From assembly GCA_041389985.1 (NCBI GenBank), contig JAWKQS010000026.1, positions 1 to 56,411 on the forward strand: DNA of 56,411 nucleotides. Reading direction: 5' to 3'. The first letter of the stretch is position 1. Every line of letters begins with the position of its first letter. The notes beneath the pieces were generated by a model, which had not been told where the DNA came from, searched no databases, and saw only the letters and a program-made list of their open reading frames with translations. Made by a program: the position numbers and the translations under genes. Below are positions 23,969-41,617 of this stretch, in pieces. The stretch is from a bacterium. Lineage in GTDB: Bacteria > Myxococcota_A > Bradymonadia > UBA7976 > UBA1532.

Positions 23969-24013
23969 GCAGAGGCACGCTGGGCAGAGGCGCGCTGGAC
24001 AGAGGCGCGCTGG
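23969..24013. repeat. Three perfect-to-near-perfect 15-bp tandem direct repeats (GCAGAGGCRCGCTGG) in the PGI/DUF3089 intergenic region.
   Basis: Sequence gcagaggcacgctgg gcagaggcgcgctgg acagaggcgcgctgg read directly from the sequence. Confidence 0.6.
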
Positions 24014-24024
24014 GCGGCGCAGGC

Positions 24025-35461: not shown

Positions 35462-35718
35462 CCCTCGCCCACCTTCTGCGCCTCCCGCCCGCCTTCGAGC
35501 GTCCCCACCGGCGTGGCGGCGCCCGCCCGGCCGTCGCGCTCCACCTCGATGGCGTCGGCGAGCGACGCGCGCGGGACGCCCAGCAGCGACTCCACCAGCG
35601 CCCGGTGATCGCGCTCGTGCTCATGGGGCAGCGCGTCATCCTCTGACTCGTAGTGGATGACCAGCACCCGCTCGCCCGTGCGCGGATCGTGGCGCAGCTT
35701 CAGCGTCACCTCAGCCAT
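35458..35718 (-). CDS. Small (86 aa) acidic/His-rich protein wedged between the FtsH-like gene and the 1071-aa gene. Function unknown.
   Basis: MAEVTLKLRHDPRTGERVLVIHYESEDDALPHEHERDHR.... It overlaps neighbours by 8 and 4 nt, so it is operon-embedded. Confidence 0.45.
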   Translation of the reverse strand: MAEVTLKLRHDPRTGERVLVIHYESEDDALPHEHERDHRALVESLLGVPRASLADAIEVERDGRAGAATPVGTLEGGREAQKVGEG

Positions 35719-37798
35719 GATCGCCTCCGAGGGCCCCCCGCAGGGCCGGTCCTTCGAGCACCTTGTGGGTCAGGAGCAGGTCGACCAGCGCCGTGTGCAG
35801 GGCCTGGTGCTGCTGGATGAGGCCGCGGGCCCGGGCGAGCTCCTCGGCGATGAGGGCGTCGATGGCGGCGTCGATGCGGCCGCGGCGGGCGTCGCTCTCA
35901 GGCTCGCCCTCCAGGCTGGCTCGCACGCCCGCGGCCGACATGCCGTAGTCCACCACCATCGAGCGCGCCATGCCGGCGACCTGCTTGAGATCGGCGAACG
36001 CCCCGATGGAGACGTCCCCCAGGACCACCTGCTCGGCCACGTAGCCGCCCAGCCCCACGCAGATCTCGGCGCGCATCTCGGCGCTCGTCACGGCGTAGGG
36101 CCGCGCCCGGGCCGCCCGCAGCACATACCCCAGCGCCCCCTCGAGGTCGGGGGAGATGGAGATGCGCTCGGGGGGCGTGGCCCCCGGCAGCAAGGTCGCG
36201 AGCAGCGCGTGGCCGGCCTCGTGGACGGCGATCACGTGCTCCTCCTGGCTCGACAGCACGACCGGCCGCCGCGACCGGCGCTCCAGGGCCCGATCTACGT
36301 CGTCCGGCGTGAACACCCCGTCGCCGGTGCGCAGGGCCTGGCGCTTCAGCGCGCGGCAGACGGCGTAGAGGTGGTCGCCGGTGTAGGGCAGCCCCTGGCT
36401 GCGATCGGCCAGGCCGTCCGTGCGGCGGACGAGGTGGTCCACCAGCGCGGGGGCCAGGGACAGGCCGAGCTTGCGGTCGTAGATCTCGATGATCGCGCGG
36501 CGATCCGCCGGCTCGGGCGCCGGAATCTCGATCAGGAACTCGAAGCGACCGGGGCGCAGCAGGGCCCCATCCACGGACTCCAGGAAGTTCGTGGTGCCCA
36601 CCACGAAGACCATCTCGTTGCGCCGGAAGCCGTCCATCTCGGTGAGGAGCTGGTTGACCATGGAGTGCTCGACGCCCGAGCCGGAGTAGGTGCCGCGCCG
36701 CTGGGCGAAGGCGTCCAGCTCGTCGAAGACGATGACCGAGGGGGCCGCCGCCCGCGCCTGGCGGAAGATCCGCCGCAGGTTCTGCTCGCTCTCGCCCACC
36801 CACTTGCTCTTGAGCTCCGGGCCGCTCACCACCAGGACGGTAGCGTCCAGGGCCGTGGCCAGGGCCTTGGCGAACCAGGTCTTCCCGGTGCCCGGCGGGC
36901 CATGGAAGATGATGCCGCGGGGCAGCAGGGCCTCGAGCTGCTCGATGTCGTCCACCGCCTCCAGCGCGTCGCGGCGGCGCACCAGGTCGATGATCTCTTC
37001 CCGCAGGCGCTTCTTCACCTCGGGGTAGCCGCCCACGTCCCGGTCCAGATCGACCTGCGGGAGATCGACCCCGTCGGAGGTGGTCTGCTGGCGGATGAGG
37101 CGGTAGATCGAGCTGGCCCGGTCCTGGCCCGGCATGGCCTCGCGCCGCAGGGCGAGCTGGCCCAGGAGCTTGCGGCACCGCACCGGGTTCTGCCCGGAGA
37201 CGTACTTGTAGAGGGCGAAGGGATCAAACGCATCTGCCCGGATTGACAGTGCTTCTCGGCGCGTCACCAGGCGCGGGAGGGCGTCGCGGGGGATGCCGGT
37301 GACGGCGCGCACGGCGCCGAAGACCTGCTCGATCACGCCCGGCAGCGGGAAGCTCGGATCCCGGAAGCCGAGGAGCAGGGCCTCGGGGTTCTCGTAGAGC
37401 AGCGGGATGACCTCGCGGGCCTCGAAGGTCAGGCCGGTGTGGGTGGTCGCGAGGACGTCCAGATGGGGCAGCACCAGCAGCAGCCGCTCCACCGAGCCCC
37501 GGATGGCGTCGGTCAGGTGGGCCAGGGTGTTCTGCAGGCCCGTGCGCCCCGCCTCGTTCTCGTTGCGGGGGCGGCCGTCGATGAGCTGGATGCGCGGCGC
37601 GTCGGGCACCTTGCGCAGGCGGTTGCGCACGGCGAGGTAGAGGTGGAGCGACAGCTCCTTGTCACACTCGACCAGGACGCTGGTGCCCTGCCGCAGGCGG
37701 CCCTCGATGAAGGCGATGTCGTCGGCGCAGGCCGCCTCCACCGCCTGATCGATGGTGACGTCGGTGGGCAGCGACTCGAGGGGGAGCGTGCGGCGCAC
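35711..37798 (-). CDS. FtsH-like AAA+ ATPase fused to an M41 zinc peptidase, but with no transmembrane anchor. It has a roughly 300-aa N-terminal region of unknown function.
   Basis: Walker A GIIFHGPPGTGKT. Walker B VIVFDELDA. Sensor / Arg finger TNFLESVDGALLRPGRFE. HEXXH is HEAGHALL. No hydrophobic helices in the N-terminal 300 aa. Confidence 0.85.
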   Translation of the reverse strand: MRRTLPLESLPTDVTIDQAVEAACADDIAFIEGRLRQGTSVLVECDKELSLHLYLAVRNRLRKVPDAPRIQLIDGRPRNENEAGRTGLQNTLAHLTDAIRGSVERLLLVLPHLDVLATTHTGLTFEAREVIPLLYENPEALLLGFRDPSFPLPGVIEQVFGAVRAVTGIPRDALPRLVTRREALSIRADAFDPFALYKYVSGQNPVRCRKLLGQLALRREAMPGQDRASSIYRLIRQQTTSDGVDLPQVDLDRDVGGYPEVKKRLREEIIDLVRRRDALEAVDDIEQLEALLPRGIIFHGPPGTGKTWFAKALATALDATVLVVSGPELKSKWVGESEQNLRRIFRQARAAAPSVIVFDELDAFAQRRGTYSGSGVEHSMVNQLLTEMDGFRRNEMVFVVGTTNFLESVDGALLRPGRFEFLIEIPAPEPADRRAIIEIYDRKLGLSLAPALVDHLVRRTDGLADRSQGLPYTGDHLYAVCRALKRQALRTGDGVFTPDDVDRALERRSRRPVVLSSQEEHVIAVHEAGHALLATLLPGATPPERISISPDLEGALGYVLRAARARPYAVTSAEMRAEICVGLGGYVAEQVVLGDVSIGAFADLKQVAGMARSMVVDYGMSAAGVRASLEGEPESDARRGRIDAAIDALIAEELARARGLIQQHQALHTALVDLLLTHKVLEGPALRGALGGDHG

Positions 37799-37802
37799 CG
37801 GG

Positions 37803-38345
37803 TCAGACCTTGACCTTGATGGTCAGCTCCAGGCCGCCAGCCTCGTCGGTGCGCTCGTCGATGCTCGTCACCTCGCCCAGGCGGGCCGCCTTCTCTTTCA
37901 GGGCCCGGACGTAGATGCGCTGCACGTGATCGGCGAGGCTCCCCTGCAGGTCGGCCTCCGCCCGGTCGAGCCGCTGGGCCAGCTCCGCGGCCAGCCGCTC
38001 ACGGGCCGCCACCTCGTTGCGCGACAGGGCCTGCTGGGCCTCGACCTGGGTGTCGGCGGTGGCCTGGACCGCCCGGGTCCCCTCGATGCGCAGCTGGACG
38101 CTGCGGCCGTCGGCGGCGAGGCGCGCCTCTGCCCCCCCGGGGAGTTGCCGGACCAGGCCGCCGTCCGCGCTGGGGGACCACCCGTCGTCGCAGAGCGCCT
38201 CACGCAGCAGGGCCACCATCTCGGCCTCGGGCAAGATGGGCAGCAGCTCGACACCCAGCTCCAGGCGATCGGAGGCCGCCACGGTGCCCCGCTCGGTGAC
38301 CCGCGTCACCGCCTCACGCCAGCGAATCCGGTAGCCCCGGCTCAT
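37803..38345 (-). CDS. Hypothetical protein of 180 aa, whose stop overlaps the FtsH-like gene start.
   Basis: Clean ORF MSRGYRIRWREAVTRV...LELTIKVKV*. Confidence 0.5.
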   Translation of the reverse strand: MSRGYRIRWREAVTRVTERGTVAASDRLELGVELLPILPEAEMVALLREALCDDGWSPSADGGLVRQLPGGAEARLAADGRSVQLRIEGTRAVQATADTQVEAQQALSRNEVAARERLAAELAQRLDRAEADLQGSLADHVQRIYVRALKEKAARLGEVTSIDERTDEAGGLELTIKVKV

Positions 38346-38355
38346 GGTGCCCCCC

Positions 38356-39752
38356 TCAGCCGATCACCCCGGCGGCCGTCCGGCGGGCGGCCGCGAGGCT
38401 CGCCGTGACGTCGGGGGGGTGGTGTGCGGCGTAGTCTGCCAGATAGAGCTGCGCCTCGGCATGCTGATCGTCGCCGTAGCGCACCTGCCCCAGGGCGTCG
38501 CGCAGCTCGGCGAGCCGCTCGCCCAGCCCGTAGAGGAGCACCGCGGCGTCCCGCCCCTGGTCCCGTGGGGTGCGCTGGGCCGCGAAGCGCTCCCGCAGGC
38601 GCCCCGGGGGGACGAGCTCCAGCAGCTCCGCCGTGACCACGAGCGCGGAGGTGGCCAGATCCAGGCGCCGCGCCTTCTCCAGGGCCCGCAGCCACTGGTG
38701 CAGCACCGTGGCGACGGAGGCGACGGCGCTGGCCGCCTCGGGCTCCCCCGCCAGCCCCCGCAGGCGGCGACGCCAGGCGGCGACCAGGGGCGCCTGCCAG
38801 CACTCGATCAGCCGCACCGCCCGCGGGGCGAGCAGCCGCGCCAGATCGGCGGGGGTCACGGGCGCCAGGTCCTCCAGCGCCAGCAGGGGCGAGGCAGCCC
38901 GCAGGCGGCTCTGCACCTCGTCGTCGGCGCCGGCCAGCCCCTGGGCCAGCAGGCCGGGCGCGATCTGGCGCACGAAGAGCCAGTCCCCGGGCTCGGTGTC
39001 GCTCACCTGCAGCCAGCGCCGCAGGATCTTGCGCCGCTCCCGCTCCCCCGACCGCTGCACCGCCGGCACCTCGATGACCCCCTGCGTCCACAGCCGGGAG
39101 GTGCCGCTGCCGTAGCTGAGCTGGAAGTCGCCCACGAGGGCGGCATCCCACAGGCGGCCCCGCACCCGCTGGCCGTCGCGCAGGACGGTCCGGGGCAGGT
39201 GGCCGCCGGCCCGCAGCAGAGCGGCGAGGCCCGTGCGGGCGATGAGCCGGCCGCCCGCCTCCAGGACCGACAGGCTGGGCCGCCGCTCCTGCTCCAGGGC
39301 AGCCTGCCCCTCCGCCGTGGAGGTGAACCGCTGGCCGCTCAGCAGCGCCCCCAGGAAGGCCAGGCGCTCGGCGTCGGCGGGGCCGGGCCGGCGAGCGTCG
39401 CCAAGGGCAACCCTCCGACTTCACTGAGGATTCCGGGACCGGGCTCGCCGAGCAGCCGCGTCTGCTGGCCGGCGGGGAAGAGCTCCACGGTGGGCGCCGC
39501 CGCGGCCGGGGCGTGCCCGCGTGCCACCGGCAGGCTCCCGGCCGCGGCCTGGAGCGCCGCCACGGCCGCCTCGTCGGCGGGCAGGAGGACCACCAGGCCA
39601 TCGGCCCCGAGCCGCCGCGCCCGACCCACGAGGGCCGCCGGATCCATGACCTCTCCACCGGATGCCGCGAGCTGGATGGCGAGCTGGCGGCCGCCCCCCG
39701 CCGCCCGGGTGAGCGGGAAGATCGCCCGCACGCGCACGGTCGCCTCGGTCAA
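38356..39752 (-). CDS. Hypothetical protein of about 465 aa. The TTG start overlaps the stop of the upstream beta-propeller gene (TTGA). At least one frameshift lies near 39330-39340.
   Basis: N-terminus MTEATVRVRAIFPLTRAAGGGRQLAIQLAAS... (tail of ORF 39339..40703). Continuation in ORF 38356..39165. Confidence 0.4.
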
Positions 39753-40884
39753 GGGGGGCCCCCGTCGGCGGGGATCCCCGCGTCCGGGGCGTCCTCCGGG
39801 CAGACCACCTCGAAGACCTGCACCGCGTCGTCGGTGGCCACCGCGAACCGTCGGCCCTCGGCGGCCACGTGGTGGGCGGGGGTGGCGGTCGACGCGGCCA
39901 GCCAGACCGTCGGGGCCTCGGGCGCCTGCAGATCCACGATCAGCGCGCCGTTGCCGGCGACGACCACCCCCAGGTCGCGGCCCAGGAGCGCCACGTCGGC
40001 GACGGGCTCGGCCGGCAGGAAGGTGGCGAGGCGGGTCGGCCCTCCGGGCAGCAGATCGATGATCCCCGCGCCGGCCGGGCCCTCCGCGAGCAGCACCCGG
40101 TCGCTCTGCAGGGCCACCCCCTCCGCCCGCCCGGCCGTCTCCAGCAGCACGTCGGCGCGGCGGACGGGCCCCGCGTCGGTGAGATCCACGAGGGCCAGCC
40201 CGGCCAGGCCATCGGCCACGGCCAGCAGCGTCCCCTGGCGAGCCAGGGCGGAGGCGCGGCCCGGCGTGTCGGCGCGCCCCGTGCGGGAGGGCGCCGACCA
40301 GTCGCCCGGCTGCACCACCTCGATGCCCTTGGCGTAGGAGGCCACGAACACGCGCCCGCCCTGGAAGACCACGCCCCGCACCTCGTCCGAGGCCGCCCAG
40401 GCCACCCCGACGGGGGCGCCGCTGGCCCGATCCAGCGCCCGCACGACGCCGGCCTGCTCCCCGATCACGATGCGGTCGGTGGCCACGGCCAGGTGGTCGA
40501 CGCTGCCCTCTTCCCCCTCCAGGTGGCGCTCGAGGCGCAGGGACGGCGGCAGAGGAAACGCCGAAAGATCCCAGATTTCGAGACCTTCGAGTCCCTTGGC
40601 GATGTAGAGCTCGCCGTCCACGAGGGCGACGGCGTGGGGGCCGACCGCGACGGGGATGGGATCGCCGGCCACCAGCTCGGCGGCGGGGCGCCCGAAGACG
40701 CAACGGCCCGCGGCGCAGGTGGCCGTCGTGCAGGGGTCGTCATCCTGGCAGTCGAGGGCGCCGTCGCAGCCCAGGCCGGCGTCGGTGAGGGCCGCGTCCG
40801 CGGCCGCGTCGCGCACGTCGGCTGCCCCGTCGTCCTGGCAGGCGACGGCGGCGGGGAGCGCGAGGGCGATCAGGAGGAGGGCGG
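39749..40884 (-). CDS. Lipoprotein with LVIVD-type beta-propeller repeats.
   Basis: Signal (M)RRPALLLIALALPAAVAC from a TTG start. Repeated ...GxxVxVAxxxxGLxIxDL... units. The first about 220 aa of ORF 39749..41623 are a shadow of the plus-strand outer-membrane protein gene. Confidence 0.6.
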
Positions 40885-41023
40885 GGCGTCTCAAGGTGCG
40901 GGGAGTATAGCCAGGGGCTCTGGTGGACGGAACCGGGTGGACGGAACCGATCGGACCGTTCGAAGAGGTGTTCGGCTTCGGTCGGGGACGCAGTATACTC
41001 CCGCGGTCCTGAGCGGAGGAAGC
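40885..41023. promoter_or_regulatory. Divergent intergenic region that should hold promoters for the minus-strand operon and the plus-strand outer-membrane protein cluster. It contains a tandem direct repeat GGTGGACGGAACCG x2 (40912-40939), bracketed by an 11-bp inverted repeat GGGGAGTATAG / CAGTATACTCCC (about 40889 and about 40990).
   Basis: Repeats read directly from the sequence. The region is flanked by two divergent starts. Confidence 0.4.
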
Positions 41024-41617
41024 ATGCGCATCCCTGGCTGGCCGGCCCTCGTGGCGCTCCTGGCGCTCGGCGCGACCGCGGCGCATGCCGACGGGCCGCT
41101 GCCGGCCCGGGCGGTGCAGAACCGCACCCACACCCAGACCCACGAGTTCACCGTCGCGGTGGGCAGCCTGCCCCTGGACGCCTTCCGCAAGGGCGTCACC
41201 CTCAGCGGCGCCTACACCCTGCACTTCACCGACCTGTGGGCGTGGGAGGCGGTGCAGTACACCTACAGCTACCCCATCTCCACCGATCTCGAGGACGAGC
41301 TGCGGGCCTACGACCTGCGGCCGACGCCCTTCGAGCGGCTGGAGTCGTACGTGGCCAGCAACGTCGTGCTCAAGCCACTGTACTTCAAGGGCGCGTGGCT
41401 CAACGACCACCTCACCTTCGGCGAGCTGCTCTTCCTGGCGGGCGGCGGGTACGGCTGGCTGACGCGGACGGCGCGGCCCATGGTGGACGCGGGCATCGCG
41501 ACGCGCATCTACGCCACCGAGTGGGTCTCCTTCCGGCTCGATGTGCGGGGCATGTCCTTCTTCAACGCCGACGACTTCCACAACGAGCTGTGGATCGGCC
41601 TGGGTGTCTCCCTTTGA
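41024..41617 (+). CDS. Small outer-membrane beta-barrel protein (197 aa).
   Basis: RBS GGAGGA then ATG. Signal MRIPGWPALVALLALGATAAHA. Alternating amphipathic strands and a C-terminal aromatic-rich end ...ELWIGLGVSL. Confidence 0.7.
   Translation: MRIPGWPALVALLALGATAAHADGPLPARAVQNRTHTQTHEFTVAVGSLPLDAFRKGVTLSGAYTLHFTDLWAWEAVQYTYSYPISTDLEDELRAYDLRPTPFERLESYVASNVVLKPLYFKGAWLNDHLTFGELLFLAGGGYGWLTRTARPMVDAGIATRIYATEWVSFRLDVRGMSFFNADDFHNELWIGLGVSL

Follow-up and report, generated by a model that had tools for sequence, protein, structure and literature searches.

Two copies of a short AT-rich palindrome, each most likely acting as the promoter −10 box of one of two back-to-back genes, make up the inverted-repeat arms in the 129-nt gap (40895–41023) between a lipoprotein gene and an outer-membrane protein (OMP) operon of the 56,411-nt stretch of DNA analysed here (hereafter the window; approximately 74% G+C). 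We consider it probable that the gap holds two sigma-70-type promoters, placed back to back, which arose when a bidirectional −10 palindrome was duplicated, and that a tandemly repeated 14-mer between them is a later, lineage-specific product of slippage. Judged from sequence comparison, the locus would be a divergent promoter region of an ordinary kind whose history can be traced, and in which the arms are meaningful and the tandem core is incidental.

The gap does separate two divergent units, as had been proposed, and both flanking genes could be delimited (Table 1). The lipoprotein gene has no alternative in-frame start upstream of its TTG, and its orthologues occupy the same position in relatives; its repeat-rich body is possibly of the LVIVD type, the LVIVD match for the orthologue in one relative (L009) being faint. 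On the other side, the OMP gene heads an OMP–TPR–TPR unit whose synteny is kept in relatives. The TPR gene that follows it starts with TTG at 41614 and overlaps the OMP stop codon (TTGA, 41614–41617), so that TTG starts are in use elsewhere in this genome.

Table 1 Coordinates of the features in and around the divergent gap (positions are those of the window)
Feature	Position	Strand	Remarks
FtsH-like AAA+/M41 protease	35711–37798	minus	Part of 'FtsH ternary system' cassette
fvmX5 (PF20003)	37803–38345	minus	Part of 'FtsH ternary system' cassette
fvmX6 (PF20004)	38356–39420	minus	Part of 'FtsH ternary system' cassette
Lipoprotein gene	39749–40894	minus	TTG start at 40894; from translation and codon-position GC
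Lipoprotein N-terminus		minus	Signal peptide (M)RRPALLLIALALPAAVAC, then repeat-rich body; from translation
Left arm GGGAGTATA	40901–40909	minus	Minus strand reads TATACTCCC
Putative lipoprotein −10, TATACT	40909 to 40904	minus	9 nt upstream of TTG, without Shine–Dalgarno
Spacer between the two promoter cores	40910–40960		Fast-evolving; L001 alignment indistinguishable from shuffles
Tandem duplication, 2 × GGTGGACGGAACCG	40922–40935 and 40936–40949		Both copies perfect
Candidate lipoprotein −35, TTCCGT	40927–40932	minus	17 bp from TATACT, inside 14-mer copy 1; 2/6 to TTGACA, predicted only
Fossil of ancestral lipoprotein 5′ end	40961–40978	minus	AAG CCG AAC ACC TCT TCG
Candidate OMP −35, TTCGGC	40971–40976	plus	17 bp upstream of TATACT; 2/6 to TTGACA
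Right palindrome copy GCAGTATACTCC	40990–41001		11/12 of GGAGTATACTCC
Putative OMP −10, TATACT	40994–40999	plus	Inside right palindrome copy; 24 nt from ATG, GGAGG between
OMP leader	41000–41023	plus	Short; Shine–Dalgarno GGAGG at 41015–41019
OMP gene, outer-membrane beta-barrel	41024–41617	plus	197 aa; ATG start; matches TIGR04565 OMP_myx_plus

Two observations concern the minus-strand DNA beyond the lipoprotein gene. The genes downstream of it (35711–39420) make up a cassette of the 'FtsH ternary system', which is predicted to act in conflict or defence. In relatives the cassette is unlinked to the lipoprotein gene, which has other genes downstream of it there. Within 39339–39750, between the fvmX6-like open reading frame and one reaching approximately 39730, the codon-position GC signal changes frame near 39400–39430; this change may mean that one gene contains a frameshift or an assembly error, or else that a small gene of its own directly follows the lipoprotein stop at 39749.

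The original prediction described the 14-mers as bracketed by an 11-bp inverted repeat. The inverted repeat exists, but its perfect match is 9 bp long, with GGGAGTATA (40901–40909) facing TATACTCCC (40994–41002) across 84 nt, and taken alone it is marginally unusual (64 of 2,000 shuffles). AGTATA occurs in just two places in the whole window, 40904–40909 and 40992–40997, 88 bp apart. Each of these places lies in a copy of one palindrome, the left copy matching GGAGTATACTCC at 9 of 12 positions with one palindrome half lost. Both in the window and in its closest relative, the Myxococcales metagenome-assembled genome (MAG) L001 (85% amino-acid identity in the OMP), each copy keeps TATACTC only in the orientation that faces its own gene. 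In the other orientation, the left copy has TATAGCC (plus strand) and the right copy TATACTG (minus strand).

The origin of the arms became apparent from DNA around OMP homologues, many of which belong to uncultured Myxococcota. Genome and metagenome collections supplied 32 loci (L003 and L011 are one contig, to which L004 is identical; L006 and L015 are also one contig), and the comparison set comprised 11 distinct related contigs. A look-up of the exact OMP protein of the window matched no recorded contig. Seven distinct contigs (L003, L005, L006, L007, L008, L009 and L012), with OMPs 64–75% identical to that of the window, share the same divergent lipoprotein/OMP–TPR–TPR layout, and the gap of each contains a single uninterrupted palindrome, in every case GAGTATACTC and frequently GGAGTATACTCC; AGTATACT is found exactly once per locus and always inside the gap. 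More distant syntenic loci have one-sided variants in which TATACTC is kept on the OMP side alone: GACTATACTC in L013, where the minus-strand hexamer TATAGT is still a TAnnnT, and GTTTATACTC in L016 and L017, where the minus-strand hexamer TATAAA is without the −7 T. Two separated copies occur in the window and L001 alone, with AGTATA spacings of 88 and 98 bp, respectively. Upstream of OMP homologues that have a different upstream gene (L002, L010, L014, L019 and L022–L030), no AGTATACT was found; L029 has one copy approximately 1.1 kb downstream of the gene start. Across all 12 lineages the top-strand TATACTC, including its −8 C and −6 C, is unchanged, and G invariably occupies position 2 of the palindrome.

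This element lies close to the lipoprotein start codon, and its distance to the OMP start varies. From the minus-strand TATACT to the lipoprotein start there are 9–13 nt, with no Shine–Dalgarno sequence, in all eight loci analysed. On the plus strand, the OMP start follows TATACT after 9 nt, as GTG, in L006 and L007, after 24–36 nt with an intervening GGAGG or GGAG in the window, L001, L005 and L009, and after a longer distance in L003 and L008. The whole gap of L006 and L007 is only 29 bp long and its sole AT-rich element is the palindrome, so that nothing else there fits a −10 box.

Conservation between the window and L001, set against a background of 67% identity at fourfold-degenerate sites of the OMP gene, is concentrated in the arms, the TTCGGC block and the OMP leader. 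Identical positions number 24 of 27 nt in the left-arm region, 16 of 16 in the block AGGTGTTCGGCTTCGG, which includes TTCGGC, and 31 of 32 in the GGAGG-containing segment that begins with AGTATACT and ends just ahead of the ATG. In both genomes TTCGGC is non-coding and precedes the top-strand TATACT by 17 bp; L003, L005, L009, L012, L016 and L017 have it at the same offset, as the reverse complement of the first two lipoprotein codons, ATG CCG. Being kept at the 17-bp offset, TTCGGC thus appears as a conserved though weak −35-position element.

Together, the conserved arms with their outward-facing TATACT, the TTCGGC block at the −35 position and an OMP leader with a Shine–Dalgarno sequence lend comparative support to the earlier description of the gap as a divergent promoter region. 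While the conservation and the spacing are directly observed, it is from them that we infer promoter activity, the transcription start sites and the type of sigma factor. The left-arm TATACT would be the −10 box of the lipoprotein gene, which would then be transcribed as a nearly leaderless mRNA with TTG 9 nt downstream of the hexamer, and the right-arm TATACT would be that of the OMP–TPR operon, paired with the weak conserved TTCGGC at 17 bp and followed by a leader of approximately 18 nt carrying GGAGG. Both arms would descend from one palindrome of 10–12 bp, (G)GAGTATACTC(C). In the relatives, this single palindrome presents TATACT on both strands with a 4-bp overlap and would serve as a shared bidirectional promoter.

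A TAnnnT hexamer at a suitable distance upstream is present for both genes. A TTGACA-like hexamer at 16–18 bp is present for neither, and because both −35 candidates match TTGACA at only two of six positions, a scan for consensus promoters and terminators returned no site in 40700–41200; at the offset of the lipoprotein −35 candidate, L001 reads TTCGAG. The broken palindromes of L013, L016 and L017 count for the −10 reading, the plus-strand TATACTC having always been retained. Against it stand the 9–13-nt spacing between hexamer and start, which implies leaders of 3–7 nt and hence not strictly leaderless mRNAs, the TTG of the window, which is an unusual start codon for a near-leaderless mRNA, and the minus-strand TATAAA without a −7 T in L016 and L017. 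Other promoter types were sought by eye in the 14-mers and the spacer, where the spacings of ECF-type (GGAAC...CGT/GTT) and sigma-54 (GG-N10-GC with TTGC) motifs did not fit. A literature search for the motif strings returned unrelated primer sequences alone.

Promoters in which a near-symmetric −10 element fires in both directions form a recognised class (Warman et al. 2021, as cited in PMC10268837 and PMC12825309), in which, as far as the class is described in PMC10268837, divergent starts lie 7–25 bp apart and the canonical 18-bp arrangement pairs −7T and −11A reciprocally. By that description the single-site relatives resemble the class, with one AT-rich pseudo-palindrome, a TAnnnT on each strand and genes starting within approximately 10–13 nt, and their predicted starts, approximately 21 bp apart, fall inside the 7–25-bp range. 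This distance, rather than the canonical 18 bp, follows from the 4-bp overlap of the hexamers, which also leaves −7T and −11A without reciprocal pairing and the −11A positions adjacent, so that the relatives do not belong to the canonical 18-bp class. Hexamers overlapping on both strands are seen in L003, L005–L009 and L012; the window lacks them and differs from the class, as so described, in having an unshared element with two sites 88 bp apart.

In its two outward −10 boxes, with both −35 regions in the 84-nt spacer, the window is instead like classical back-to-back promoters, from which it differs by the very weak −35 candidates and by −10 boxes that, together with the first bases downstream of them, are identical because of shared ancestry. 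Leaderless and short-leader promoters of Actinobacteria, Deinococcus and archaea carry TANNNT a few bases before the start codon. The lipoprotein gene (eight of eight loci) and the OMP gene of L006 and L007 are similar to these in starting 9–13 nt after TATACT, and differ in a spacing that is 3–7 nt longer and, in the window, in the TTG start codon.

The window also retains a trace of the arrangement that preceded the duplication. When the alignment is anchored on the right-hand copy, L003, L009, L012, L016 and L017 read TATACT or TATAAA, 13 nt, and then ATG CCG AAC or AAT (MPN...), and L005 has ATG CCG AAG (MPK) at the same 13-nt distance. In the window, the corresponding position, 13 nt from the right-hand AGTATA, is occupied by AAG (40978 to 40976), and the sequence that follows on the minus strand matches L016 and L017 in register at 15 of 21 positions, compared with 7–8 of 21 for loci whose N-terminus is a different one. 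The AAG is also present in L001. This in-register match to the ATG CCG of the relatives, seen directly in the alignment, indicates that the right copy marks the ancestral position, the present lipoprotein start adjoining the left copy.

We therefore propose the following course of events. The −10 element would have been duplicated in the ancestor that this genome shares with L001, and the lipoprotein gene would have gained a new start beside the new copy. The old start would have decayed from ATG to AAG and would today persist in no other role than that of −35 region for the OMP promoter. The tandem of 14-mers, which overlaps the weak lipoprotein −35 position, would have come later and in this lineage only. 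By our reading, the present signal peptide is still similar to that of L003 in its hydrophobic core and lipobox (LIA..L.A..VAC). The fossil AAG shares the reading frame of the present TTG, from which it is separated by 84 nt (28 codons) without a stop; this open frame may be due to chance in 74%-GC DNA.

How the second copy was made was approached through several candidate routes. A simple 88-bp tandem duplication was rejected, the segment between the arms having no residual similarity to the sequence left of the left arm (943 of 1,000 shuffles in the window and 370 of 1,000 in L001 scored equally). In a test for inverted duplication, the 24 nt downstream of each TATACT, compared between the two arms, share CCGCG..CC.TGAG, a score reached by 185 of 2,000 shuffles in both genomes; an origin of the second copy as an inverted copy of the OMP-side promoter is thus suggestive and not significant, with single-site controls behaving similarly. 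The idea that an L006/L007-like allele had replaced the 5′ end of the lipoprotein gene was rejected because L003 is the closest outgroup for both proteins, the lipoprotein (59% versus approximately 40% for the others) and the OMP.

The tandem repeat itself, two perfect copies of GGTGGACGGAACCG at 40922–40949, is exactly as originally described. A perfect tandem of at least 14 nt appeared in none of 2,000 dinucleotide-preserving shuffles of 40885–41023, and this is one of only two perfect duplications with a period of at least 10 in the 56-kb window, which together mark it as a genuine duplication event and not a product of chance. No further occurrence was found in the window at up to two mismatches, nor any exact match in the 32 fetched loci. 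L001 lacks the tandem and offers at most a single-copy resemblance of 9 of 14 positions, and the central 53–63 nt that contain the 14-mers align with L001 no better than shuffled sequence does (338 of 1,000 shuffles scored equally well). The best reading of the 14-mers is as a recent, lineage-specific and neutral slippage duplication in an unconstrained spacer. They are like replication-slippage duplications in non-coding DNA in every respect considered, namely two perfect copies, restriction to one lineage and lack of conservation with L001, and nothing sets them apart from such duplications. In L008, the OMP leader holds an 18-nt × 7 tandem array in the same gap (2289–2418), whose first unit bears the palindrome (CGGCCGAGTATACTCTCT) and whose later units are degenerate (CGGCCGAGAATACCCTGC and CGGCCGAGAGAACCCTGC); given this independent expansion, the gap appears to be prone to slippage or duplication.

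Repeats of other kinds were seen elsewhere. In the window, a 15-nt × 3.1 tandem repeat (GCAGAGGCGCGCTGG, 90% matches) lies at 23969–24015, in apparently non-coding DNA just below the stop of a minus-strand gene (25146–24025), and a 138-nt × 2.2 repeat (71% matches) at 197–494, inside the large open reading frame at the window start, is rich in TGC and GAC codons and looks like a repeated Cys/Asp-rich protein module. The DNA upstream of the distant OMP homologue of L019 (approximately 1240–1500) is packed with short tandem repeats of the GCGTGAGCGGC/ATAGGCGGC type, in a different context and with no palindrome.

Several regulatory explanations of the repeats have to be weighed against promoter duplication and slippage. 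The 14-mers had been taken for an operator array, and as functional direct repeats gained in this lineage and bound by, for instance, a response regulator, they would act on the lipoprotein −35 region and on approximately −57 to −84 of the OMP promoter. The identity of the copies, far beyond chance, and the overlap of copy 1 with the predicted lipoprotein −35 would suit such an array, which we nevertheless think very unlikely: perfect identity is also what recent slippage would leave behind, the independent expansion in L008 suggests a duplication-prone gap, the repeats are conserved neither in L001 nor in any other fetched locus, no additional copies exist, and a period of 14 bp, which fits neither the helical repeat of about 10–11 bp nor its multiples, would place the copies on different faces of the helix. 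It is unlikely, though less markedly so, that the palindrome GAGTATACTC is the operator of a dimeric regulator of the lipoprotein gene and the OMP–TPR operon, instead of or besides a −10 box, in which case DNA looping could bring together the two copies of this lineage, which lie 88 bp from each other. A perfect 10–12-bp dyad has been conserved while the OMPs diverged to 64–75% identity with that of the window, and G2, C11 and the top-strand −8 C, three positions that a TAnnnT box does not need, are invariant. This excess, to which the −6 C also contributes, makes an additional protein contact possible, and the dyad centred between divergent genes and overlapping the core promoter recalls TetR/tetA-type operators. 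Unlike those, the conserved unit contains no regulator gene: no DNA-binding domain was found among the neighbouring genes, and the flanking genes vary among relatives. Dyad symmetry is moreover lacking in several copies, as the left copy of the window and L001 keeps one half-site (9/12, compared with 11/12 on the right) and L013, L016 and L017 have lost the dyad yet preserve the one-sided top-strand TATACTC and its spacing. The palindrome GGAGTATACTCC with up to three mismatches has five matches in 56 kb where 8.2 are expected, no other palindrome site being found in the window, and the 29-bp gap of L006 and L007 offers no other −10. The looping or co-regulation site put forward in the original prediction is unsupported, the arms being better explained as duplicated −10 elements. 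That GAGTATACTC might be more than a −10 box, an operator through which a dimeric regulator couples the lipoprotein and the OMP–TPR unit as one envelope module, and that its duplicates here might be bridged by a loop which keeps the now separate promoters under common control, we regard as a decidedly unlikely extension of the same idea.

Two further explanations treat the arms as the borders of an inserted or folded element. The AGTATA direct repeat (40904–40909 and 40992–40997) flanks an 82-nt segment and could be read as the 6-bp target-site duplication of an 82-bp MITE-like element inserted into the ancestral palindrome. This is highly improbable, as the right third of the segment is the fossil lipoprotein 5′ end, in register with relatives, and not foreign DNA; a MITE or other small insertion was rejected on the lack of terminal inverted repeats and of any second copy in the window or the 32 loci. 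Pairing of the arms as a long-range stem, either in a transcript as a regulatory RNA or in single-stranded DNA as a cruciform, is scarcely credible. Predicted minimum-energy folds do pair both arms, but the folding energy is ordinary for the composition (z = −0.17 for the plus and −1.44 for the minus strand), and a structured RNA was rejected with folds of both gap strands no more stable than those of shuffles. No Rfam family matches 40500–41400 even at E ≤ 10, the predicted promoters would yield no mRNA containing both arms, and the palindrome of the relatives is single, contiguous and free of a loop.

Under the favoured reading of a duplicated −10 palindrome, the locus is a naturally occurring case in which two nearly leaderless genes of a 74%-GC bacterium are served by one compact, symmetric bidirectional promoter. 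One lineage split this promoter by duplication, and the fossil start codon would have been retained for its second role, as −35 region of the adjacent promoter. A striking repeat pattern can thereby be sorted into arms that are under selection and 14-mers that are not. For annotation, the start codons of both genes are fixed, at TTG 40894 and ATG 41024, and their likely promoters are placed. If confirmed, the locus would show how a shared promoter comes apart into two, and how the promoter of one gene can constrain the first codons of the gene that diverges from it.
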